IMG/VR virus record: IMGVR_UViG_3300046516_001619
Coordinates: 1 to 42,567 of that record
Length of the DNA: 42,567 nt
Direction: 5' to 3' (one strand)
From: a virus
Positions 2,240-42,567 of this stretch are shown in pieces. Position 1 is the stretch's first letter. Each line of letters opens with the position of its first letter. Below the pieces are notes generated by a model. It was not told the origin of the DNA, searched no databases, and worked only from the letters and a program-made list of their open reading frames with translations. A program made the translations under genes and the position numbers.

Positions 2240-2385
2240 ACCATGAACCTCAGTACCAACGCGTCTCTCGTCGCGAGGGCGCGTTCGCCTTCGCGGTCAT
2301 CTTCGCCATCGTCATCGGCTTCTGGCCCTCGCTCGGCCCGTGGCTGCACGCACTCGTCTTCGGACTGACCGGTGCGTGGCTCTAG
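2236..2385 (+). CDS. Small membrane protein (49 aa, below the ORF-track cutoff)
   Basis: Manual translation gives MNHEPQYQRVSRREGAFAFAVIFAIVIGFWPSLGPWLHALVFGLTGAWL, with two hydrophobic segments. ATGA overlap with the upstream stop. High third-position GC. Confidence 0.45.
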   Translation: MNHEPQYQRVSRREGAFAFAVIFAIVIGFWPSLGPWLHALVFGLTGAWL

Positions 2386-3242
2386 CGAGTGCTTTCGTCT
2401 TCGTCCCACAGGCCTAACTGGCACGACGTACACAGCGGCAACGTCGCTCTGGCGCTGAATCGTCGTGGTCCAGTCGGACCACCCGCCCATTGCCACTTGT
2501 CAAGGCCGAGTGCTTTCGCCTCGGCTTGCAGGTTTTCATAGCGCCGGCCTACGTCCGGGTAGAAGAACGCAATCTCACCGAGCTCGGCGTGGTTGGCCAA
2601 CGCACCACACAGGCATTCGCCCGAGCGGTGGCAGTTGACCGACACCGGGTTACGGGTGATGCCGTGATCCTCGAGATAGTCCAGGCACTGACGTTTCGTC
2701 CAGCCACGGATCGGGTTGAACCACACCGCGGACCGCTCGGCATCCTTGTAGTGCAATGGCCGGCTGGCCATTTTCGAGTGCTTCCGTCGAGCCGACTCCG
2801 CGATACGGATCCCGGTCACCAGGCCGATGCGCTCGCGGCGAGTGCTTTTGTGCTGCTTGATGGCCAGCTGCACCTGGCGCTGCTTCAGGTAGTAGTACAT
2901 CGTGCTGTGGCTCTTCGGGCCGCTCGGAAAGCCACGGTGGGTGGTCCCGTCACGTGTGGTGTAGCCCTCGAGCACGAGCCGCTCGTAGTCGCCCCGCGGC
3001 GCCTCGTACACCTCGAGCGGCCAGCCCTGCTCGCGGCAGGTATCCTCCACGAACTGACGCGTCTGGGGTACCCCGGTGCCCGTGTCCAGGTGAATGCAGC
3101 CGCTGAATGCTGCGTGCCTGGCCACGATGCTGGTCGCCGTCAGCGAGTCGTCGCCACCACTGAACAAGGCGTACACCTGGCTCGGATAGTGCTCGAGCAC
3201 GCCCGCATCGATACTCGCCAGTGCTGCCTCGACCAGGCTCAC
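2382..3242 (-). CDS. PAPS-reductase-like PP-loop ATP pyrophosphatase (DndC/CysH superfamily)
   Basis: PP-loop YALFSGGDDSLTATSIV near the N-terminus and a C-terminal Cys cluster CHRSGECLCGA. GTG start at 3242 overlaps the upstream stop (GTGA). Confidence 0.65.
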   Translation of the reverse strand: MSLVEAALASIDAGVLEHYPSQVYALFSGGDDSLTATSIVARHAAFSGCIHLDTGTGVPQTRQFVEDTCREQGWPLEVYEAPRGDYERLVLEGYTTRDGTTHRGFPSGPKSHSTMYYYLKQRQVQLAIKQHKSTRRERIGLVTGIRIAESARRKHSKMASRPLHYKDAERSAVWFNPIRGWTKRQCLDYLEDHGITRNPVSVNCHRSGECLCGALANHAELGEIAFFYPDVGRRYENLQAEAKALGLDKWQWAGGPTGPRRFSARATLPLCTSCQLGLWDEDESTR

Positions 3243-3436: not shown

Positions 3437-4166
3437 GCCTGCGAATCCTGCGGACCGACTGCGGCTCACACGCGTGTCCATGGCTCCATCGTCCCCCACA
3501 TTCCGGGCAGTCCGCGTGCTGCCCCGTACAACTGAACGCGTCCGCCGCCACGGCTACCGAAATCATGCGCATGCGGCGCCATAGCGCGTTCATCTGCTCC
3601 ACCCAGGCCTCCGGCGTCCACTCGCGCCGGAAACGGCTCAGGGTGCCCCGCACGCGGTCTAGGACGATGTACTCGAAGTTGGCCACGTAGCCGGGGTTCT
3701 GATCCCAGTGCGCCCAGGTGTAGAGCAGCGGCTGCCACGTCTCTTTCTGGGCCCGTTCCTGGCTCCACGCGCCCCTGGTCGTCTTGAAGTCGTAGATGGT
3801 GCCGTCCGTGCCGGCCAGGTCGATCGCGCCCACGATCGGGGCGCCCAGCTCCGACTCGGTGTCCAGGCTGAAGCCCATCTCCGGAATGCCCTCGAGCCCG
3901 AGCTCGAAGACCTGCTCGAGGAGCGTCAGCCCGATCGCGGTCAGGCCACGGTTTTCCGTGGGGTACGCCTTCCACATGGCCCGGAAAGCACGTTCGCCGT
4001 CCTGGCCCTGGTAGTGCGCTTCCAGACCATGGTGGACAGCTGAGCCGAAGGCCATGGCTTCGCTCACCTCGATGGCTTCACCGTCCACGTAGTGCGCTCG
4101 AAAAGAAGCCGGGCATTGCTCCCAGAGCATGAACCGGCTGGCCGACCAGTGCGGCATCACGGCCAT
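3411..4166 (-). CDS. Cas4/RecB-like PD-(D/E)XK exonuclease with a 4-Cys cluster
   Basis: Nuclease core GAIDLAGTDGTIYDFKTTRG (D...D-x-K) and a QPLLYTW (Q..Y) motif. There is an N-terminal Cys (WEQCPASF) plus C-terminal CTGQHADCPEC, as in Fe-S Cas4/AddB-type nucleases. Confidence 0.7.
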   Translation of the reverse strand: MAVMPHWSASRFMLWEQCPASFRAHYVDGEAIEVSEAMAFGSAVHHGLEAHYQGQDGERAFRAMWKAYPTENRGLTAIGLTLLEQVFELGLEGIPEMGFSLDTESELGAPIVGAIDLAGTDGTIYDFKTTRGAWSQERAQKETWQPLLYTWAHWDQNPGYVANFEYIVLDRVRGTLSRFRREWTPEAWVEQMNALWRRMRMISVAVAADAFSCTGQHADCPECGGRWSHGHACEPQSVRRIRRHAELVSAV

Positions 4167-5614
4167 CGGTCAGCCTCCACCAGACGGTGAGCAATGTATT
4201 CAGCAACCGGACTCGCCACCCCGTTGCCGATTAGTCGATAGCGGTGACTGTCCTTGATCTCCTTGCCGTCCGCGGTCCAGCGCGTGTGCTCGTCAGGCCA
4301 CCCCTGGAGTCTCTCGCACTCGAGCGGGGTGAGGCGACGTACGCCCATTGGCCCGTTGACGCCCGGCGCGGTCTGTGAACCGAGGATGGGTGGACACCCA
4401 TCCTCGGTGTAAGCCGTGTCATGGTTCTGACCCCGGTGGCTATAGAAGCCGGCTACCGGACCGATAGTGTGTGGCCCAGTCGCATCCACGGTCGGTGCGT
4501 CGGTGTACACGTTGAATCCAGGGTCGCGTAGGCGCATGTTGCCACTGGCATCACGGCTCAACGTTTTGGCCTCGCCGCTCTGCTCGGCATCCCTGCGTAA
4601 GGCGTAGACGAGGTTGTCGGCGCCGTCGCCGCGCGGACTGCTGTGGCCATGATGTCCCTGGCTGGCAGTGTCACTGCCAGCCAGGACGAGGTTCTCCGTC
4701 TCAGCGTCGATGCGTTCGTTGCGCGCAGTCAGACTGCGCGCAACCACGAGGTTGTCATCGTCCTCGTGGTGACGACCAGGCAGGTTCGACTCGGGGTGCC
4801 CGTCACTGCTCAGCGTGGCAGCAACACTGAACCCGCGGTTGCCGTGAGCCGATCCGCTACTCAGTGCGCCGACCTCAGCCACTGCCGCGGCATTCTGCTC
4901 ATCGACAATCATCGGCAGTTCGACGCTAGATCGACGAGCGCCGTCATCAAGCGTGGGGGCAACGTCTTCCCACGTTTCTCGGCCCTGCGCAGGATGCCCG
5001 CCGCAGCTCTCGCAGACAGCCAGTACCGCCGCGGCACGGGCCGCGTCTCCAAGACAGCCGACAATGAAGACACGACGGCGTCGTTGGGGGACTCCGAACC
5101 AGCGCGCGTCCAGTACGCGGTAGGCCCACCCGTACCCGAGGTCGCCCAGCCCCCCGAGGACGGTCGCCATGTCCCGTCCTCCGTCCGAGCTAAGCAGTCC
5201 GGGAACATTCTCAATAAGCGCCCATCGTGGCCGCAGCTCGGACAACACCCGCTGGAACTCAAACCAGAGACTGCTGCGTTCGCCCCGAAAACCGGCCCGC
5301 GCTCCGGCCACGCTGAGGTCCTGGCACGGGAATCCGCCGTAGACGAGGTCAATACGCTCGGATAGCCCTGGCCCGGTTTCCCGCCGCCCGAGGTCAACTG
5401 GCGCGAGTACTCCGTCAGCCGTACCTCGGCTCGTTGGTTCTCGCTCACAGCCCACGCTTCGGACATCGTCAACTCGGGTTACCTCCGGCCAGTGCCGCTC
5501 GAGCACGGATAGACACCACGGGTCGTTCTCGGCTTGCAGCACGGTCTGGATGCCCGCCCGCTCGAGCCCGATCTCGAATCCGCCGGCACCGCTGAACAAC
5601 GATACGGCCCTCAT
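4157..5614 (-). CDS. DNA (cytosine-5) methyltransferase with an unusually long variable region
   Basis: True start is MRAVSLFSGAGGFEIG (motif I) at ATG 5614, overlapping the upstream stop. Motif IV GFPCQDLS, motif VI ENVPGL, motif VIII QRRRRVFIVG, and C-terminal RRLTPLECERLQGWP and GNGVASPV are present. About 235 aa separate motifs VIII and IX. Confidence 0.9.
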   Translation of the reverse strand: MRAVSLFSGAGGFEIGLERAGIQTVLQAENDPWCLSVLERHWPEVTRVDDVRSVGCEREPTSRGTADGVLAPVDLGRRETGPGLSERIDLVYGGFPCQDLSVAGARAGFRGERSSLWFEFQRVLSELRPRWALIENVPGLLSSDGGRDMATVLGGLGDLGYGWAYRVLDARWFGVPQRRRRVFIVGCLGDAARAAAVLAVCESCGGHPAQGRETWEDVAPTLDDGARRSSVELPMIVDEQNAAAVAEVGALSSGSAHGNRGFSVAATLSSDGHPESNLPGRHHEDDDNLVVARSLTARNERIDAETENLVLAGSDTASQGHHGHSSPRGDGADNLVYALRRDAEQSGEAKTLSRDASGNMRLRDPGFNVYTDAPTVDATGPHTIGPVAGFYSHRGQNHDTAYTEDGCPPILGSQTAPGVNGPMGVRRLTPLECERLQGWPDEHTRWTADGKEIKDSHRYRLIGNGVASPVAEYIAHRLVEADRWP

Positions 5615-6174
5615 ACGGGCACCTCGACGCCCAGCAACTGCTTGAGCCGGTCGTAGGCCAGCTTGATGCGGATGAAGTCCGAGGCGTTGCCGCCCATGTC
5701 CGGGTGGTGGATCAAGGCCAGTCGACGGAACGACCTGGTCACCTCGTCCACCGTGCACGGCCACCTGAGGCCCAGGTCCGGTAGCCAGAGCCGTACTTCG
5801 TACGGCGCCTGCGCTACCGACGCGTGCGCCTTCTTCTTCGAGTGCTGCGGCTCTGGCCGCGGCGCGCCCCGCACCTGGCCAGGACACGTTTCAAAATGGC
5901 ATTCGCCACTAGCCCGATCGCCGTCCACGTCCATCGGCCGCCGCTTGCCCTTGACCGTGGTCTCCCACCACACCTTCGCGTTGCACGCCTTGCAGTTGCT
6001 GACCCGGTAGCGCTGGCCGTCCACGTCAGTCACCCATTCCGTGGCCTGACACGACTCGAAGTGCGGCTGCTCCTCCTCGTCGTCGTCGTATGGCCAGACA
6101 CGCTCAGGATCGAACGGGTTCGCCCCCCACCAGATCTTCGAGCCGCAGTTTCGGCAGCGACCCCAGCCGGCCAT
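5611..6174 (-). CDS. J-domain (DnaJ-like) protein with a duplicated zinc-ribbon
   Basis: C-terminal J domain: WPCTVDEVTRSFRRLALIHHPDMGGNASDFIRIKLAYDRLKQLL (HPD motif). The N-terminal half carries two similar units, CRNCGSKIWW...HFESC and CKACNAKVWW...HFETC. ATG 6174 (MAGWGRC) is preferred over 6303: it has a GAGGA SD 9 nt upstream, and third-position GC drops in 6175..6303. Confidence 0.75.
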   Translation of the reverse strand: MAGWGRCRNCGSKIWWGANPFDPERVWPYDDDEEEQPHFESCQATEWVTDVDGQRYRVSNCKACNAKVWWETTVKGKRRPMDVDGDRASGECHFETCPGQVRGAPRPEPQHSKKKAHASVAQAPYEVRLWLPDLGLRWPCTVDEVTRSFRRLALIHHPDMGGNASDFIRIKLAYDRLKQLLGVEVPV

Positions 6175-6329
6175 CAGCGCTGTCCTCGCTTGGCCATGGT
6201 GGCCAGCCTGGCCCAGCCCGTGGGCGCCTGCTTGGCCGGGATCGAATGCCACGATCCATCCCCCGGATCCTGGACGTTGAGCCACCCCTGCTCGCGACCC
6301 CAAATGACCCGCGGGAGCCCCAAATCGAT

Positions 6330-10228: not shown

Positions 10229-10800
10229 CGGAGCTCCAGTCGCGACGAGCGGGTGATGTCCACCCCGGGCGGGATCTCGCCGGTGGCCTTGTACGCGTCC
10301 AGGATGGCCCGCTTGTCGACGCTCTCGGTCGTCACCACCTTGACGTACTCGTCGGGGACCAGCATCTGCTCGAGGATCTGCACCGCGGGTGGATTGGTCC
10401 GCACGCGCAGCTTGAAGCGCGCCGTGTCGATACGCTCCGAGCCAATCGCCACCATGTGCCGCAGCACGTAGTCGCGCAGTCGGTCGGCGTTGCGGATATC
10501 GGCCGCGGCCAGATCGCGCATGCGGTCCGACTCGGACTTGCGCATGGCCGCCATGCTCTCGCACTGCTTGATCAGCCCGGCGATCGCCTCGGCCTTGTGG
10601 GTGATCAGTCCAGCAATGTCGTCGAGCTGCCGCTCGAGCTCCTGGCTATCCGTCTCAGGCTCCTCGAGCAGGGCCAGGATGTGCAGGTAGTCCTCGGACA
10701 GGGCGTACAGCGTCGTTGAGCGTTCGGCGATCCGGTTAAAGGCGCGACTGGCTGCTTCGATAGTCTCCGAAGACATGCCGCTGCCAGGGGTAGTGGTCAT
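10225..10800 (-). CDS. Siphovirus Gp157-like protein
   Basis: N-terminal coiled coil (LSEDYLHILALLEE...ELERQLDDI) and C-terminal FKLRVRTNPPAVQILEQMLVPDEYVKV...VDKRAILDAYKATGEIPPGVDI fit my recollection of the Sipho_Gp157 family. It holds the usual position at the head of a replication/recombination module. Confidence 0.5.
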   Translation of the reverse strand: MTTTPGSGMSSETIEAASRAFNRIAERSTTLYALSEDYLHILALLEEPETDSQELERQLDDIAGLITHKAEAIAGLIKQCESMAAMRKSESDRMRDLAAADIRNADRLRDYVLRHMVAIGSERIDTARFKLRVRTNPPAVQILEQMLVPDEYVKVVTTESVDKRAILDAYKATGEIPPGVDITRSSRLELR

Positions 10801-10805
10801 GTGAC

Positions 10806-10979
10806 CTAGGCCGCTGCCTGCTCGGCTGGTGGAGCTGGTGGAAGGAGTGCGTCGCCCTCGGCGACGAGGTCACGGATGCGATAGATGATCAGGGTGCGGA
10901 CGGCAACGCCCTCGCGCTCGGCGACGAGCTCGAGCTTTGCCCACGCGCTGTGCGGGATCGGTAAGGTGAGCATTGGCAT
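10806..10979 (-). CDS. Ribbon-helix-helix (Arc/CopG-like) protein
   Basis: MPMLTLPIPHSAWAKLELVAEREGVAVRTLIIYRIRDLV fits a beta-strand then two helices. Alternative starts are 10988 (GTG) and 10973. Confidence 0.45.
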   Translation of the reverse strand: MPMLTLPIPHSAWAKLELVAEREGVAVRTLIIYRIRDLVAEGDALLPPAPPAEQAAA

Positions 10980-11030
10980 GCCCACCACTGTGCCTGCCCG
11001 TCTGGTCTGAAAAACGCCAGTTTGATCAGA

Positions 11031-11061
11031 GGTAAAAAAGCGCTGGCGATGACGCCGGGGG
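11031..11061 (-). terminator. Weak candidate intrinsic terminator after the PAS-regulator gene
   Basis: Minus strand reads cccccGGCGtcatCGCCagcgcTTTTTTacc: a short GC stem followed by a T6 run, which is rare in this GC-rich genome. A second T5 run follows (ctggcgtttttcag). Confidence 0.3.
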
Positions 11062-11844
11062 CTAGAACAAATAGAGCTTTGGGTACCACTCCACGGCGAG
11101 ACGACGGAGCGTCTGTGCGGGCGACTCCTTTTCCTTCTTCCAGTACGGTTTCAGATACTTGGTCAGGGTCACGGTACTGCCGACCAAGGTTGCTTTCATG
11201 ACTGCCCTGACCGCGACTTTGCCGTCTCCGAGTGCCCGGTGCAAGCGCTCGTCAAAATCATCGGCTGGAATGAGGCGGTCTCCTTTGTCGGGACGGGCCT
11301 TGCGCGGCTTCTTCGGCTTGCGCAGCCTCTCTTCGATCTCGTCGTCCTCGGTCCGAACGTGAGCCAGGCGGTCGGCCATGTCGTCCACCTTCATCGCCAG
11401 GTTCTCGAGGCGATAGTTGCGCCACCGGAGGTGGTCCCACGGTGTCTGGAACTGGGGACCGTCCAGGTAGTCGACGCTGATGTCGGCAACGACCTCCCAC
11501 AGCCCACACATCAGGTTGAACGTCATCACCGCATCGGAGAGCTCGATGCAGCGACCGTCCCTGGTCTCGATCCAGCTGACGATGTGCTCCTCGACGCTCT
11601 GGGCCAGTTTCAGTCGGAGCTGGGCCATTGCGATCGCGGCAATCTCGGAGTCGTCCGCGGACGTGTGGTGGGGCCGCAGTAAACGCCTGCCCGGATGGTC
11701 GACAACCTCTTCACGGCCGTAGCCCATCACGACACAGAAGGCGTTGTTACAGGCGACGATCAGGCCCTGGGCATTGACTGTCCAGGCAATGCGTACGGAC
11801 TGTGGAATATCGCGGAGGCCCATGGGTGCCGCACCCTTCCCCAC
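11062..11844 (-). CDS. PAS-domain protein with a basic linker and a C-terminal HTH-like segment (putative switch regulator)
   Basis: IAWTVNAQGLIVACNNAFCVVMGYGREEVVDHPGRRLL...WIETRDGRCIELSDAVMTF...GLWEVVADIS matches the PAS pattern (G.I...N.af....GY..eE..G ... kdG ... DIs). The linker is RLRKPKKPRKARPDKGDR. The C-terminus VRAVMKATLVGSTVTLTKYLKPYW is HTH-like. It is the first gene of the leftward early operon. GTG 11844 or ATG 11823. Confidence 0.6.
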   Translation of the reverse strand: MGKGAAPMGLRDIPQSVRIAWTVNAQGLIVACNNAFCVVMGYGREEVVDHPGRRLLRPHHTSADDSEIAAIAMAQLRLKLAQSVEEHIVSWIETRDGRCIELSDAVMTFNLMCGLWEVVADISVDYLDGPQFQTPWDHLRWRNYRLENLAMKVDDMADRLAHVRTEDDEIEERLRKPKKPRKARPDKGDRLIPADDFDERLHRALGDGKVAVRAVMKATLVGSTVTLTKYLKPYWKKEKESPAQTLRRLAVEWYPKLYLF

Positions 11845-12070
11845 CAGAAAATGGCAAAGGTATTCATGTGCGACAGGCTCGCGGGTTCAAGATGCCCACC
11901 CCCGTGGGCTTGTCGTAGATCGAGTGTTCTACTCTATTTCGGGCCGCCCCGGCCCGTCAGAATCGCCAGCGCTCTTTATCAGTGGCGGTTCGTTCCCGTT
12001 ACGTGAGTGTTTCATGAAGGCTAACACTCAACGCATCGCACCGCATCATTGCTATGCGTAGACTGTCTCT
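11845..12070. promoter_or_regulatory. Divergent lysis-lysogeny switch region with repeated GAGTGTT half-sites
   Basis: GAGTGTT is at 11922..11928 and 12005..12011, with its complement AACACTC at 12023..12029 (inverted repeat tgagtgtt-N11-aacactca, 12004..12030). CGCATC direct repeats are at 12032..12037 and 12042..12047. A TAGACT -10-like hexamer (12059..12064) lies 6 nt before the ATG at 12071. GC hairpins are at 11894..11909 and 11941..11955. Confidence 0.55.
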
Positions 12071-12253
12071 ATGATTGAGGAGTTGGTGGGCGAAAAGATC
12101 GTCAGTGTGCGGCTAGATCCCGCTCTCTATCGACGTCTGAAGGCGATTGCCAAACGGCAGAGACGAAGCCTGAGCGCTCAGGTGGTGCTCATCGTCGACG
12201 AGTGGCTGGCGCATCAGCCCAACGAGAAAAAGCACAACTCTGATAAATCGTGA
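12071..12253 (+). CDS. Ribbon-helix-helix (CopG/MetJ/Arc family) DNA-binding protein; candidate repressor
   Basis: KIVSVRLDPALYRRLKAIAKRQRRSLSAQVVLIVDEWL is a classic RHH (beta strand VSVRL, then helix A and helix B). No SD is visible, so the transcript may be leaderless. Confidence 0.7.
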   Translation: MIEELVGEKIVSVRLDPALYRRLKAIAKRQRRSLSAQVVLIVDEWLAHQPNEKKHNSDKS

Positions 12254-12337
12254 TGCGTTCTGCCGGCATCGCCAGCGCTAACCGATGACTGGCTGAACTG
12301 GCGATTCCAGAGCCTGGCCGCGCGCCAGACTCGGAGT

Positions 12338-12496
12338 ATGCCCAGGAAGCCCACCCCACCGCTCGTGGTCGAAGTCGTCGTTGAGACTTCGCCTGCCGCA
12401 CAGGCTGCCTACCTCGAAGCGATCAAGATCCTCGTGCGCCACATCCGCGCCACCCGCCAAGCCGGCGTAGAAGGCACTTGCGAGCAGGCCAGCTAG
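12338..12496 (+). CDS. Hypothetical small protein (52 aa, below the ORF-track cutoff)
   Basis: Manual translation gives MPRKPTPPLVVEVVVETSPAAQAAYLEAIKILVRHIRATRQAGVEGTCEQAS. Same orientation as the flanking RHH and integrase genes. The alternative minus-strand ORF 12278..12583 has antisense-like composition. Confidence 0.3.
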   Translation: MPRKPTPPLVVEVVVETSPAAQAAYLEAIKILVRHIRATRQAGVEGTCEQAS

Positions 12497-12515
12497 GGAT
12501 GTAGTACTATCTTCA

Positions 12516-14327
12516 ATGATGGCACCCAAACGCCCCTTTAGCCTGCGTTCAGGCCCAGCCTCTCCGCTTACCGTTCTGCGCATTCAGCAAGCCATTGCCT
12601 ATGGCCGCGTCTCGAGCGAGATGCAGCGCGACAGCGAGTCGATCAAGGTCCAGGTGACCAAGTTGCTGGGCACGATCAATGTGCGCGACAACCCCGAGCT
12701 CCCTGACCGCGACCAGCTCCGACTGCTGGGCGCCTACTGGGACGATGGCGTCAGCGGCACGCTGCCGCTCGAACAACGGCCCGAAGGCCGCCAGCTCATG
12801 GAGCGCATCTGCCCGCGGCTGTCCACCAAGTGTGACGGTTTGTGCGGCCACAATGGCGAGGTCGATCAGGTGTGGATCACCAAACTGGATCGACTGGCGC
12901 GCAAGCTCCAGATCCTGATCGATATCGAAGCCTGGCTGCGACGGCACAACGTGTCGCTGATCTGCATGGATCCATCGATCGACACGCGCACCGGGACCGG
13001 TCGGCTGGTGTTCACCATCCTGGCGAGCATTGCCGAATGGGAACGCGAGACGATCCTCGAGCGCACCACAGCTGGCAAACATCACAAGGCTTCGGAGGGC
13101 AAGTGGGTGGGCGGTCGCCAGACCTTTGGTTTGAAAACTGACGAGAACGGCTATCTGGTCATCGACGACACGTTCGTCGACCGTTGTGGCGAAATGGCCT
13201 ACCGTGTCGTCCAATCGATTTTCGAGAACATCGCGCTGCATGGATCGACGGCGTGGAAAGAAGCGCAACGCACCGGTCTGACCGAGCGTCGCGTCGGCTG
13301 GATCCTGCACAACGCGCGCTACAAAGGCGAGGGTGGCATCTACGCCAAAGACGGCTCGTTCACGGCTGCCGAAAAGAACGCGCCACCACAGCTTGTCAGC
13401 CCCGCGCTGTGGCAGATGGCCCAGGACGCGTTGATTACCAACCGCGCCAAGGCCGGGGGCCGACATCATCGCACGTACCTGTTGAGCGGGCTCCTGATCT
13501 GCTGTGAGCCGTATGACTACATCTCCACGGTGGACGATCAGGGCCGTACCCGCGAACGTCCGTCAGACAAAGTCAGTGGCCAGTGCGGCCGATCGTTTGC
13601 TGGACGTGCGGGCGTCAACAAGCCCGGCGGTCCCGAATACAGCTACTACTTCTGCACGCGCACGCTGAAGGCTCAGGTCGAAGCCAACCGAAACGGCTGC
13701 ACGGCCAAGATGCTGCGCTCCACCGATGTCGACAACGCCATTTGGAATCTGGTCAAGCGTTTCGTCAGCAATCCGGGCGAGGTCATTGCCGAGGCAGACT
13801 CGGGCCGTAGCGACATGCTGACTCAGTTGAACAGAGACCTCACCCATGTCGTCGAGCAGCTCGGCCAGGCGCATATGGAACGCGAGAACGTCTTGCGTTC
13901 GGCCGAACGTGGTCTACGCACATGGGACGAAGCCGAGGCTCGCCACCGTGAGATCAGCGGCCAGATCAAAGTCCTCGAGCAGCAGCGTGACGCGTTCGAG
14001 ATGCAGATCCGCTCGCTCAGCTACGCCGACCTGGACGCGCAGCGCGGCGAGGTCACGCTGAACGACATCAGCGAGGACCTCGAAGAGATCGAGCGCGAGA
14101 ACAACGTTGAGCTCAAGAAGGCGTTGATTCAAGCGGTCGTCAGACGCATCGAAGTCCGTACCGTGGACGGTGAACCACGGCTGCGAGCGATGATGCGCTT
14201 CGGTGGAGACGCCAGTTTTTTGATGAAGGAACTACGGTCGGGACGGAAACCGACAGACGATACGCATATGGAAATGAGCGTGAGTCTTGCGCCAGGCAAA
14301 AAGGACTGGAACGTCTCGGCCGCGTAG
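12516..14327 (+). CDS. int: Large serine recombinase (integrase)
   Basis: Resolvase-type catalytic domain with AIAYGRVSSEMQRDSESIKVQ (catalytic Ser) and ITKLDRLARK...LASIAEWERETILERT. It continues with a recombinase domain, the Cys cluster LICCEPYDY...GQCGRSF...YYFCTR...NGC (zinc ribbon) and a C-terminal coiled coil. 603 aa. Confidence 0.9.
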   Translation: MMAPKRPFSLRSGPASPLTVLRIQQAIAYGRVSSEMQRDSESIKVQVTKLLGTINVRDNPELPDRDQLRLLGAYWDDGVSGTLPLEQRPEGRQLMERICPRLSTKCDGLCGHNGEVDQVWITKLDRLARKLQILIDIEAWLRRHNVSLICMDPSIDTRTGTGRLVFTILASIAEWERETILERTTAGKHHKASEGKWVGGRQTFGLKTDENGYLVIDDTFVDRCGEMAYRVVQSIFENIALHGSTAWKEAQRTGLTERRVGWILHNARYKGEGGIYAKDGSFTAAEKNAPPQLVSPALWQMAQDALITNRAKAGGRHHRTYLLSGLLICCEPYDYISTVDDQGRTRERPSDKVSGQCGRSFAGRAGVNKPGGPEYSYYFCTRTLKAQVEANRNGCTAKMLRSTDVDNAIWNLVKRFVSNPGEVIAEADSGRSDMLTQLNRDLTHVVEQLGQAHMERENVLRSAERGLRTWDEAEARHREISGQIKVLEQQRDAFEMQIRSLSYADLDAQRGEVTLNDISEDLEEIERENNVELKKALIQAVVRRIEVRTVDGEPRLRAMMRFGGDASFLMKELRSGRKPTDDTHMEMSVSLAPGKKDWNVSAA

Positions 14328-39994: not shown

Positions 39995-40234
39995 TCACTT
40001 GTCCGGGTAGTCGACGTGATTGAACTGGGCCTCCAGCGCTTGGAGCGGGCTGGTGTTCTGACTGAGACCGTAGCTTCCAAACCACGTCCTCTGGTTCGGC
40101 CACTGGACGTGGTGGCACGTCTGGGTGGCGACGACAACGTCGCAGTGCTCGCAATGCCGGTGGGGGTAACCGACGTGGCAGCACGGTCCGCGTCCGCCAC
40201 AGGTCAGAGTCGTCAAGGCAACCTTCTTTCTCAC
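39995..40234 (-). CDS. Cys/His-rich putative zinc-binding protein (79 aa)
   Basis: In-frame GTG 40234 overlaps the terminase TGA (GTGA). The product reads VRKKVALTTLTCGGRGPCCHVGYPHRHCEHCDVVVATQTCHH... Confidence 0.45.
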   Translation of the reverse strand: MRKKVALTTLTCGGRGPCCHVGYPHRHCEHCDVVVATQTCHHVQWPNQRTWFGSYGLSQNTSPLQALEAQFNHVDYPDK

Positions 40235-41577
40235 CCGAACCTCAGGCTCGTCGGTTCCGTCGGCCGAGGCGGCTGCGCCTCGGCACACAGCCCATACCTG
40301 AGCGCGTCCGGCGCGTGGTCCTCGGTCTTGCTTCCTTTAATGGAGTCGGCGACATCCTCGGGATCTAACGGGTCGACGACCATGGCCGGCAGCGTCCGTT
40401 GCAAGTTCGGAGCGCAGCCAGCCAGGATCTGCAGTCTCGGTGGACCGGCATCGTGCGCCAGGGCTCGTCGCGTAATGGCCCAGCCCTGCTTTCTCGAGTT
40501 CATCCCGGGAAACACCGGGTTGACCCCGTGGGACCAGTACACCGCGGCAATGCTTGGCCGCTGCTGCTCCGTCCTCAGGTTGAACATGCTCGGATCCAGG
40601 ATCCTGAGATTGAGCCGCTCGCCTTCGCTTCTGCTTTTGATCGCCTCGGCTTGCTGCTCGTCTCGGAGCCCGGCCGCGTACAGCTCGCGGTAGACAAAGA
40701 TCTTGCGGGTCTCGGGCTCGCGGGCAAACCACAGACAGCAGAACGGAGCCGCGAAGCCGTAATCCACGGCCAGCCACCTGGGCCACTCCTGGGGAATCTC
40801 GAAGCTCGGGCAGATATGGAGATTCGGATCCCACTCGGTGAAGTACATGCCCTCGGCCGCGACCCACAACCCCAGCCGCAGCCGCTGGTACAGGAACCCG
40901 GTCAGGCTGTCCAGCGTCTGCATGTACTCTTTGCCGAAATCTGTCCACGCACCCTGGCTATAGAGCTGAGGATTATCCTCGTGTTTGGACTCGAGTAACA
41001 AACACTCCAAACTATTGCATCTTTGCTTGAGCCAATGGTCCGGAGAACTGGGGTTACAGTCGGCGATAATCTGCCGATAACTGAGCACCCCATTCCGCAA
41101 TCCACGGAGCAGCATGGCCCAGTCGTCCTCGTCCAATTCGGTCGCTTCCTGGACGTACACGACGTCGAATTCGGTCGACCCAATTTTCTCCGGATCGTCC
41201 ATCCCAGCGACCATAATTCGGGCCCCACTGGGGTACCGATATTCCTGATCGCCTTCATGAAATCGGACCTGATTCGGCCGTGGAAGCACCTTGTTTTCGA
41301 GGGTCGCCATGGCACTCTGGGTCAGGCTCTTGCGCGTCTTCCGAACGATCGCGGCACGGATCGGTTTCTGCATCGCGATCAGGTTCAATTTCTCCAGACA
41401 CGCCCTGCTTTTTCCGGTCCCCGCTGGCCCACTCAACAGGACTTCTCTGGCCCTTGATTTAAAGAGGTTCAGGGCTGCACCGTGGGGCTCATAGGGCGCC
41501 TCTTCCGGACTCGCCTCGGTCCCCCACTCCACCGTCGCCGGCCGGCCCACCAGGCTCAGCTTGTTACTCGGCGGCAC
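40231..41577 (-). CDS. terL: Terminase large subunit
   Basis: Walker A VLLSGPAGTGKSRACLEK, Walker B-like FDVVYVQEATEL, and a C-terminal nuclease region (WLAVDYGFAAP...EDHAPDALRYG). 448 aa. Confidence 0.85.
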   Translation of the reverse strand: MPPSNKLSLVGRPATVEWGTEASPEEAPYEPHGAALNLFKSRAREVLLSGPAGTGKSRACLEKLNLIAMQKPIRAAIVRKTRKSLTQSAMATLENKVLPRPNQVRFHEGDQEYRYPSGARIMVAGMDDPEKIGSTEFDVVYVQEATELDEDDWAMLLRGLRNGVLSYRQIIADCNPSSPDHWLKQRCNSLECLLLESKHEDNPQLYSQGAWTDFGKEYMQTLDSLTGFLYQRLRLGLWVAAEGMYFTEWDPNLHICPSFEIPQEWPRWLAVDYGFAAPFCCLWFAREPETRKIFVYRELYAAGLRDEQQAEAIKSRSEGERLNLRILDPSMFNLRTEQQRPSIAAVYWSHGVNPVFPGMNSRKQGWAITRRALAHDAGPPRLQILAGCAPNLQRTLPAMVVDPLDPEDVADSIKGSKTEDHAPDALRYGLCAEAQPPRPTEPTSLRFG

Positions 41578-42185: not shown

Positions 42186-42567
42186 TTAGAGCACGGATGC
42201 CGGGTCTACCCCGGCAATAGCCTTCACGACCTGGCTCACTGCTACGTCAACCTTCTCGCGGTACACGTCTGGTTTTCTGGCCCGGAGTAGAAGCATTAAT
42301 AGGTTGTCGGAGTACTCGATTTTCTCATCGGTACCGACTGGCTCACCGTGCCAGTAAGAGGTTCGTTTATACGGTGAACCTTCGATAGCTCGTCTGAAGG
42401 CTTCCTTCTCTAAACGTTCCGTAGCTTGTTCGCCCGCGATACGGAAACCGTTAGCGAACTCTGGATCATGCTCTTGCCATTCATAAACGCAACTACGTGG
42501 CACCTTAGCTTGTTCGCACGCGTATGAGATATTCGCCCACTTAGCGTATGACTCTAGAAACGCATGC
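42186..42567 (-). CDS. Small terminase-like HTH protein, C-terminal segment (full product about 158 aa when joined to 128..222)
   Basis: The ORF track shows VPRSCVYEWQEHDPEFANGFRIAGEQATERLEKEAFRRAIEG...LLMLLLRARKPDVYREK. The frame stays open to the window end. It lies about 600 bp upstream of the large terminase, separated from it by a ~200-bp gap and two small ORFs (41791..41976, 41564..41761). GC is visibly lower than in the rest of the genome. Confidence 0.6.
   Translation of the reverse strand, partial: HAFLESYAKWANISYACEQAKVPRSCVYEWQEHDPEFANGFRIAGEQATERLEKEAFRRAIEGSPYKRTSYWHGEPVGTDEKIEYSDNLLMLLLRARKPDVYREKVDVAVSQVVKAIAGVDPASVL
42441..42567. repeat. Terminal direct repeat, copy 2 (identical to 1..127)
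   Basis: Same 127-nt string as 1..127. Removing one copy gives a 42,440-bp circular map. Confidence 0.97.

Follow-up and report, generated by a model that had tools for sequence, protein, structure and literature searches.

The virus record IMGVR_UViG_3300046516_001619 of IMG/VR, analysed here over its full 42,567 nucleotides (the window), carries at the junction of its integrase genes and its early genes a gene for a protein, P0001, that combines an N-terminal PAS domain with a long helix, a basic arm and a helical C-terminal domain. We give an even chance to the reading that P0001, as a dimer, acts as a one-component transcription factor in the lysis-lysogeny or early-gene switch, at sites around its own gene. 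The PAS fold, the domain architecture and the position of the gene, which is conserved in metagenomic relatives, form the basis of this proposal, together with a set of repeats placed non-randomly around the gene; we infer DNA binding by the protein, its choice of sites, the sign of regulation and any sensing.

The gene lies on the minus strand. The first-pass annotation gave its product 260 amino acids (aa), and an open reading frame (ORF) of that length, read from a GTG, does run from 11062 to 11844. Its start is in doubt, however: two independent gene callers (JGI and Logan) chose an ATG seven codons past the GTG and report an identical 253-aa product, labelled 'PAS domain S-box-containing protein' by JGI, and the alignment with a 66% identical homologue, P0002, begins at the same ATG (11823). 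The GTG (11844) falls within the purine-rich GGTGGGGAAGGG, which would be the ribosome-binding site of the ATG. The GTG start is therefore less likely than the ATG start, and 11062..11823 is used here, with residues numbered 1-253.

The N-terminal PAS domain

Judged by sequence alone, the PAS call is borderline. P0001 falls just short of the gathering score of Pfam PAS_9 (25.5 bits against 27, E=1.6e-5) and of the score set for PF00989 (20.9 bits against 22.6), which two relatives, P0021 and P0048, pass at 28.5 and 29.5 bits. It lies above the cut-off of the NCBIfam model TIGR00229 'sensory_box' (25.9 bits against 22.9), and is hence assigned to the PAS domains at a curated threshold.

AlphaFold2 (AF2), run on an 18-sequence alignment of the family, produced a model with a mean predicted local distance difference test (pLDDT) score of 88.2, ranging from 83 to 98 across the PAS blocks and mostly above 90. 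A two-sequence alignment gave a pLDDT of only 35.5, and the good model needed the 18 members recovered by an exhaustive HMMER search. In the PAS part of the model, strands at residues 9-16 and 21-25 are followed by helices at 27-33, 37-40, 45-49 and 59-72 and by strands at 78-86, 92-103 and 108-116. This order, β-β-α-α-α-α-β-β-β, is that of a canonical PAS domain, a five-stranded antiparallel sheet with flanking helices.

Foldseek comparison with the PDB returned 251 matches at E<=0.001 with a probability of 1.00, each of the 50 listed being a PAS or LOV domain or a construct with one inside. The best local fit is to 8px4 (target-normalised template modelling (TM) score 0.75, root-mean-square deviation 2.4 Å, 107 columns); other matches are the PAS domain of hERG (1byw, target-normalised TM score 0.66), YtvA and short LOV proteins. 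The viral structure library contains kinases with PAS domains and a few PAS proteins of small size, none of them with the same architecture. AF2 and Foldseek thus both returned a PAS fold, and residues 9-116, as modelled, are a true PAS domain; at 11476..11799, it lies inside the segment (nt ~11440..11802) in which the first-pass annotation had recognised a PAS signature.

The helix, the basic arm and the C-terminal domain

The helix that follows the PAS domain (Table 1) shows a clean 3-4 spacing of hydrophobic residues from L139 to L167 (L139, L142, V146, M149, L153, V156, I163 and L167), and its sole insertion or deletion relative to P0002 is of exactly seven residues. Across the family, differences in linker length are not multiples of seven, and only the +7 insertion in P0002 fits a coiled coil. 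Among the top Foldseek matches are LOV proteins with a C-terminal Jα helix (YtvA and short LOV proteins), the alignment running through the helix. Residues 128-167 probably form a coiled-coil or Jα-like helix of dimerisation and signalling.

The highly basic linker described in the first-pass annotation, RKPKKPRKARPDKGDR, is found at residues 168-183, within a low-confidence, unstructured stretch of the AF2 model. The arm bears the family motif R-K-x-R-S-D-K-G-x-R, of which R-K-x-R-S-D-K-G is the best-conserved feature of the C-terminal half of the protein; all sequences aligned over the C-terminal domain have the Gly of its DKG.

The C-terminal domain consists, in the model, of five helices (187-199, 205-212, 217-227, 235-246 and 248-251). 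Helices two and three have a helix-turn-helix (HTH)-like appearance (VAVRAVMKAT-LVGS-TVTLTKYLKPY), and the last two finish in the family motif RRLxxEWYPxLYL. When a profile of this domain alone was compared with the PDB, the matches to 2jn6, an IS3-type transposase HTH (E=0.033), Z-alpha (0.15), Mos1 (0.56), TetR (0.74) and sigma-28 (0.87) were all sub-threshold, as were those to KfrA_N (0.021) and HTH_Tnp_ISL3 (0.065) in Pfam; most of these are HTH or winged-helix DNA-binding domains. The top-scoring PDB entry was 8fje (E=0.00042), a designed repeat protein; it was set aside, being made up of four weak repeat segments that are each non-significant alone. Of the HTH-like C-terminus proposed earlier, the confidently modelled helical domain and its HTH-like turn stand, but the HTH matches are sub-threshold only; the domain is probably HTH-like.

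Repeats around the PAS gene

The 12-mer ATCGCCAGCGCT has exactly three copies in the 42.6 kb (11039-11050, 11962-11973 and 12268-12279), against 0.48 expected with one mismatch allowed, and all three lie within 1.3 kb around the PAS gene. Two of the copies are part of the longer dyad TCGCCAG-N22-CTGGCG, which occurs at two places (11015-11049 and 12269-12304) against 0.02 expected, and no shuffle reached three matches. These operator-like repeats are non-random, and they mark three candidate operators (Table 1). O_D sits in the gap of 82-88 bp that separates the PAS stop codon from a small ribbon-helix-helix (RHH)-like gene, O_U in the intergenic region upstream of the PAS gene, and O_R between the divergent RHH gene and the genes of a small ORF and the integrase. 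The motif common to the upstream and downstream regions of the PAS gene has p=0.005 against shuffles in the window. In L001, the locus of a relative, half-sites and N22 spacing are retained at all corresponding places.

The 84-bp non-coding block around O_R (12254-12337) is 94% identical to L001, against 71-82% for the genes and 48% for the adjacent small ORF. It holds a palindromic dyad, ATCGCCAG-N22-CTGGCGAT, and a second palindrome, CTGGCGCGCGGCCAG, and could be an integrase promoter/operator or attP. Adjoining O_U, a perfect 7-bp GC hairpin, CGGGCCGCCCCGGCCCG (CGGGCCG-CCC-CGGCCCG; 11940-11956), is base for base the same in L001; it folds with -13.9 kcal/mol (z=-2.0) on the minus strand and has no T-run after it.

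The loci were tested one by one for an ungapped motif common to the region upstream of the PAS gene and the gap just downstream, each against 200 shuffles. A locus-specific motif was obtained at p<=0.02 in seven of ten loci (window, L001, L004, L008, L010, L012 and L013), and was not significant in L005, L006 and L007. The motifs vary by locus, several containing TGACG(A) or TGGCGA, and TGRCGA is suggestive as a common core inside them. L004 repeats the three-site layout of the window, with a 31-nt match beyond each of its divergent genes and a related site between them. The three sites, at 4336-4366, 4717-4730 and 5840-5872 of L004, comprise an inverted repeat of 31 nt, 90% complementary, with one copy at the 3' end of the XRE gene and one at that of the PAS gene, and the related site between; the core of the repeat is the palindrome TCGTCAA-C-TTGACGA.

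Two other interpretations of these sequences were rejected. The two inverted dyads might flank an invertible 1.2-kb segment or be att sites; this finds no support, because all four assemblies of this type of phage (window, L001, L002 and L003) share one orientation. The hairpin plus T6 that the first-pass annotation placed after the gene is present (11039..11056 followed by TTTTTT), but with a stem of 4-5 bp, -7.9 kcal/mol and z=-0.78 it is no better than chance, 42 of 200 shuffles folding equally well. A terminator scan found three such sites in 1.9 kb against 1.2 expected, and in L001 the T-run is only T4, with half-sites conserved. A rho-independent terminator was rejected, as the fold is at chance level and is not kept as a terminator in the 66%-identical relative; we read the hairpin-T6 stretch as part of the operator spacer.

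A rare family at a conserved position

An exhaustive HMMER search of 1.84 billion representatives yielded 67 matches, about 20 of them short proteins of the same family and the remainder multi-PAS kinases that align to residues 20-60, the PAS S1 box. A word-indexed protein search recovered only two to four relatives even with a profile. No match was found by tblastn in 50,697 phage records, in PHROGs at E<=10 or among the PADLOC models, and peptide-pattern scans for the family in 185,579 representative genomes, IMG/VR and JGI metagenome contigs gave no confirmed relative. The protein family is rare.

Synteny was read from the retrievable contigs that carry individual family members. The first-pass annotation put the PAS gene at the head of the early operon, at the switch, and the gene order of the window and of its relatives supports this: the gene leads the operon in the window with L002/L003, in L001, L007, L008, the P0022 contig, L010/L011, L012 and L013/L014. 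Homologues also stand next to integrases, as that annotation had thought worth looking for; serine or tyrosine integrases adjoin the PAS gene at all of these loci except L012, whose contig lacks the integrase side. The boundary position recurs in at least nine metagenomic relatives.

L001 has the layout of the window. In L007, a serine integrase is followed by an XRE gene divergent from the PAS gene and then by the small gene, while L008 runs from a serine integrase through the PAS gene and the small gene onward to PrimPol. The P0022 contig has a tyrosine integrase, an HTH_17 gene divergent from the PAS gene and then small genes. In L010/L011, a serine integrase, a small ORF and an XRE gene occupy one strand, with the PAS gene divergent from them and a small gene following it. 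L012 runs from the PAS gene through the small gene onward, its integrase side lying beyond the contig. In L013/L014, a serine integrase and a small ORF share one strand, and a divergent PAS variant leads onward to VRR-NUC and PrimPol. L006 shows the order HTH_3, serine integrase, PAS gene. Finally, the distant member P0069 in L004 is divergent from an XRE-led operon (VRR-NUC, AAA_25 helicase) and convergent with the integrase, so that its PAS gene is in the classical repressor position.

A small RHH-like gene directly follows the PAS gene in the window, L001, L005, L007, L008, L010 and L012. The divergent partner differs by locus (RHH, XRE, HTH_17 or none) and the PAS protein is constant; no other candidate DNA-binding protein is shared by all of them. 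Members of this PAS subfamily also carry other partner domains. In P0009, P0011, P0012 and P0017 (L013/L014), an N-terminal extension of about 100 residues replaces the C-terminal HTH-like domain, and the C-terminal tail of P0008 is of another kind. The pattern suggests that domains have been shuffled around a PAS module that is itself conserved.

A model of the switch

In the model that we favour, two subunits would be joined by their PAS domains and 40-residue heptad helices. Each would bear a flexible basic arm and an HTH-like domain, and the arms would let these domains reach half-sites about 30 bp apart. The dimer would bind the long-spaced dyads TCGCCAG-N22-CTGGCGA that bracket a regulatory cassette of its own gene and the divergent RHH gene. 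With the dimer on O_D, beyond its own stop codon, transcription would be blocked or repressed before it reaches the small RHH-like gene and the early/replication operon. Binding at O_U, in the divergent promoter region, and at O_R, before the small ORF and the integrase, would let the protein regulate its own gene and the integrase operon, perhaps through looping. Dimerisation would come from the PAS domain, and DNA binding may depend on a ligand or redox cue passed via the PAS domain and the helix.

Several points weigh against this proposal. No significant match to the PDB or Pfam profiles ties the C-terminal domain to a known HTH family, and the variant P0009 is without this domain, yet retains the PAS domain and the position. 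The repeats may be targets of the RHH proteins, or of the XRE protein, instead. Their motif statistics are based on mononucleotide shuffles, with three of ten loci negative, and the half-site core TGRCGA was defined post hoc, its enrichment in flanking non-coding DNA being confined to the window, L001 and L004. The hairpin and T6 are unconvincing as a terminator. Furthermore, in phages of the window type, the PAS gene is co-directional with the lytic genes, the position of Cro and not of CI, so that a role as maintenance repressor needs the proposed block at O_D.

A possibility that we consider doubtful is that P0001 is instead a signal-dependent activator resembling lambda CII or VqmA-Phage. 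Expressed early in the lytic direction, it would use its PAS domain to sense a metabolite or the redox state of the host, activate a neighbouring promoter and so bias the decision, its target being either the downstream small RHH-like gene or the RHH - small ORF - integrase operon. The PAS gene is indeed first in a lytic-direction operon in at least eight loci. In lambda, the CII-activated pI promoter lies upstream of int, and comparably, the small ORF and integrase genes here are directly preceded by an operator-like dyad. VqmA-Phage, of vibriophage VP882, is a characterised lysis regulator in which an N-terminal PAS domain binds the autoinducer DPO and a C-terminal HTH follows; it activates the antirepressor gene qtip, the small product of which inactivates the phage repressor and launches lysis (PMC8284805). 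The system is also cited in a review of PAS domains (PMC10468136, reference 6). The conserved small gene directly downstream of the PAS gene recalls the vqmA-Phage/qtip pair (PMC8284805), but its product resembles a DNA-binding RHH protein and not a Qtip-type antirepressor. P0001 has no homology to VqmA, no ligand-binding motif was found in its PAS domain, and the L004 gene is in the repressor position, all of which sit poorly with such an activator.

Signal sensing, dimerisation and a role outside transcription

The residues of the PAS domain bear on what it might sense. The counterpart of the LOV flavin motif GXNCRFLQ is HPGRRLLRP in P0001, with the family consensus xxxLLRP, and the adduct cysteine of GXNCRFLQ is found in none of the 18 aligned family members. 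The protein is not a LOV photoreceptor, because no member has a cysteine at the LOV position. The PAS domain has four cysteines, for which an iron-sulfur or redox-cysteine PAS was considered and dropped, as they are kept only in the nearest relative. In the 18-sequence alignment E39, R50, P51 and E79 are near-invariant and H80 is frequent; these residues could line a pocket or merely stabilise the fold. No conserved heme, flavin or other cofactor motif is evident in the family alignment. Signal sensing by the PAS domain is hypothetical, and the interpretation of the first-pass annotation, that the phage may couple a small-molecule or redox signal directly to its lysis-lysogeny or early-gene decision, is plausible.

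PAS domains often only dimerise, and many are without a known ligand. P0001 could accordingly be a DNA-binding switch regulator whose PAS domain serves purely for oligomerisation, the role of the C-terminal domain of CI, with no signal sensed. The missing LOV cysteine, the poor conservation of the protein's other cysteines and the restriction of near-invariance in the PAS domain to E39, R50, P51 and E79 favour this reading, and in VqmA both dimerisation and sensing require the PAS domain (PMC8284805). We nevertheless regard it as unlikely: the near-invariant charged residues R50 and E79, often with H80, in the PAS core are compatible with a ligand pocket, and a PAS domain with a Jα-like helix is typical of signalling PAS modules.

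Least probable by far is that P0001 is not a transcription factor at all, acting instead as an integrase accessory or recombination directionality factor, or as an antirepressor through protein-protein contacts: its gene adjoins a large serine recombinase in the window, L001, L004, L006, L007, L008, L010 and L013, the ~22-bp dyad spacing recalls the att geometry of serine integrases, and the C-terminal domain is without a significant HTH match, but directionality factors are integrase-specific and the P0022 relative has a tyrosine integrase, lysogeny regulators normally adjoin integrases, and the basic arm, three-helix motif and flanking repeats better fit a DNA-binding regulator.

Comparison with known regulators

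The first-pass annotation stated that no sensor-type switch regulator of this kind had been characterised. This is overstated, since VqmA-Phage of VP882 is a characterised protein with PAS and HTH domains (PMC8284805). VqmA-Phage (gp56) is likewise phage-encoded, with an N-terminal PAS domain, a C-terminal DNA-binding HTH, a PAS-mediated dimer, control of lysis-lysogeny and a neighbouring small gene (PMC8284805), the dimer, DNA binding and control being predicted in the case of P0001. The two are not homologous by our comparisons: BLASTP against VP882 gp56 gave E=26 and hhalign a probability of 0.2% (E=0.26), and no VqmA chain was among the PDB sequence matches at E<=1. VqmA has a LuxR-type HTH close to its PAS domain, whereas P0001 places the 40-residue heptad helix and the 19-residue basic arm between the PAS domain and an HTH-like domain that matches no family. 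VqmA-Phage is, moreover, copied from a quorum-sensing receptor of the host and belongs to an accessory module away from cI/cro, whereas P0001 is encoded at the integrase/early-operon junction, and no cellular homologues with its architecture were detected. The P0001 group is a new family and a new arrangement at the core switch, not a new concept, and is an analogue of VqmA by design only.

P0001 shares with the bacterial PAS/LOV-HTH regulators, YtvA and the short LOV proteins the succession of PAS core, C-terminal helix and effector. EL222, for example, couples a LOV domain to an HTH. LOV proteins have the GXNCRFLQ cysteine and a flavin, whereas the P0001 family is without the cysteine, has no predicted cofactor and has another type of effector domain.

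Lambda CI and TP901-1 CI (O_R, O_L, O_D) are CI-type repressors with three operators. Like these, P0001 is a two-domain regulator beside an integrase, with three related sites around a divergent gene pair that suggest cooperativity or looping, and in L004 the PAS gene occupies the CI position. It differs in its reversed domain order, with the oligomerisation/PAS domain N-terminal and the predicted DNA-binding domain C-terminal, in having, by Pfam and NCBIfam, neither the XRE HTH nor the S24 peptidase domain of CI/LexA-type proteins, and in the co-direction of its gene with the early genes in most loci. Its place as first gene of the replication-gene operon, divergent from the integrase operon, is rather that of Cro, than which it is far larger, with 253 aa, a sensor-type domain and a coiled coil (predicted). 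The small RHH-like gene just downstream is the better Cro analogue. A literature search found no PAS-containing immunity repressor.

The phage genome and the neighbouring genes

Bases 1-127 of the window are identical to bases 42441-42567, and the window is therefore taken as a circularly closed, complete phage genome of ~42.44 kb and not as an integrated prophage. It encodes the large terminase subunit (TerL), a major head protein, a DNA methyltransferase, an exonuclease, a PrimPol-helicase, VRR-NUC, an XRE protein, Gp157, a CopG-type RHH protein and a serine recombinase; no tRNA genes were found in it. The phage is temperate. All genes from 11823 to ~1600 point leftward, with the PAS gene in the lead, and the rightward RHH gene, 52-aa ORF and integrase lie across a 247-bp intergenic region (11824-12070) from it. 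Features of the locus are collected in Table 1.

Table 1. Coordinates in the window of the PAS gene, the segments of its product, the flanking genes and the candidate operators.
Feature	Coordinates	Strand	Evidence or remarks
PAS / probable coiled-coil / basic-arm / HTH-like protein P0001, 253 aa	11062..11823	-	Stop codon 11062-11064
Predicted PAS domain, residues 9-116, topology β2-α4-β3	11476..11799	-	AF2, Foldseek, TIGR00229, PAS_9
Single 40-residue helix, residues 128-167	11323..11442	-	AF2 helix 128-167; heptads read from sequence
Disordered, highly basic arm RKPKKPRKARPDKGDRLIP, residues 168-186	11266..11322	-	pLDDT 63-75, no secondary structure (AF2)
C-terminal helical domain, residues 187-253	11065..11265	-	AF2 pLDDT 93-97
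Small RHH-like protein, 55-57 aa, directly downstream of the PAS gene	10806..10979	-	Translations and alignment
Divergent RHH (CopG-type) protein, 60 aa, heading the RHH - small ORF - integrase operon	12071..12253	+	Pfam RHH_1, 21.0 bits against a cut-off of 20.5
Conserved 52-aa small ORF (MPRKPxPP...AYxEAIxxLIxxI) before the serine integrase	12338..12496	+	Homologous translations in L010, L013 and L001
Large serine recombinase (integrase), 603 aa	12516..14327	+	Pfam Resolvase, E=5e-27; Zn_ribbon_recom; NCBIfam XisF/Ccr-type
Candidate operator O_D, TCGCCAG-N22-CTGGCG	11015..11050	.	Contains a ATCGCCAGCGCT copy; overlaps the weak hairpin and T6
Candidate operator O_U, ATCGCCAGCGCT, N8, imperfect half-site GTGGCGG	11962..11988	.	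In the 247-bp divergent intergenic region 11824-12070
Candidate operator O_R, palindromic dyad TCGCCAG-N22-CTGGCG(A)	12269..12304	.	Separates the RHH gene from the small ORF / integrase genes

The small RHH-like protein downstream of the PAS gene follows the pattern MPxLTLxIPxSxWxKLExVxxREGVxSVRxL. The evidence for its RHH nature is weak (RHH_4 at E=0.17, and the RHH_4-type PDB match 3kk4 at E=1.2), and a role as a Cro-like partner is plausible. The small protein with the MPRKPxPP start, encoded just 5' of the large serine recombinase, has counterparts of about 50 aa in the same place in L010 (7263-7424), L013 (6173-6337) and L001 (944-1087); it has no family match and could assist the integrase as an accessory or directionality factor. 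The scan of window ORFs turned up no S24-type cleavable repressor, and no sigma-70 promoters were found in 10700-12600, where the sigma-70 consensus may not be that of the host.

The early operon also has genes for a PAPS-reductase-domain protein (2382-3242, minus strand), a 576-aa DNA methyltransferase (4157-5887, minus strand) and a weak DnaJ-domain ORF (5611-6303, minus strand). The nearest cultured relative of TerL (40231-41577, minus strand) is that of Thermobifida phage P1312, at 38% identity, followed by those of Arthrobacter and Streptomyces phages, and Rpf-type transglycosylase domains occur on related contigs. The TerL relatives and Rpf-type domains weakly hint at a high-GC Gram-positive host.

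Implications for phage switches

To our knowledge, nearly all prophage switches that are understood answer DNA damage via RecA, and the few exceptions are accessory: VqmA-Phage/Qtip, arbitrium, and pairs of a transcription factor and a small protein. In the phages described here, a sensor-type domain is built into the putative regulator at the switch itself, an arrangement conserved in uncultured, mostly soil-derived phages with serine or tyrosine integrases. This is a conserved and unannotated family at the phage switch, for which phage annotation resources currently have no entry, so that its addition would be worthwhile, and the operator model is concrete and testable.

It is tempting to go further, and we do so tentatively: in a soil temperate phage lineage, the master regulator of the switch may be a ligand- or redox-gated PAS protein, such that a host metabolic cue sets induction or the decision at the time of infection, with a single dimer reaching across 30 bp from one half-site to the other at each of the three sites bracketing the cassette. 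If this were true, metabolic gating would stand in for the cleavage of a repressor through RecA, or for an antirepressor circuit of the accessory kind. Should the PAS domain do no more than dimerise, P0001 would still represent a new family of switch proteins in phages, with a dyad operator whose long spacing is unusual. If it truly senses, the switch of these phages would respond directly to the physiology of the host, and the protein would provide a small and portable regulator, gated by a ligand and with a defined operator.

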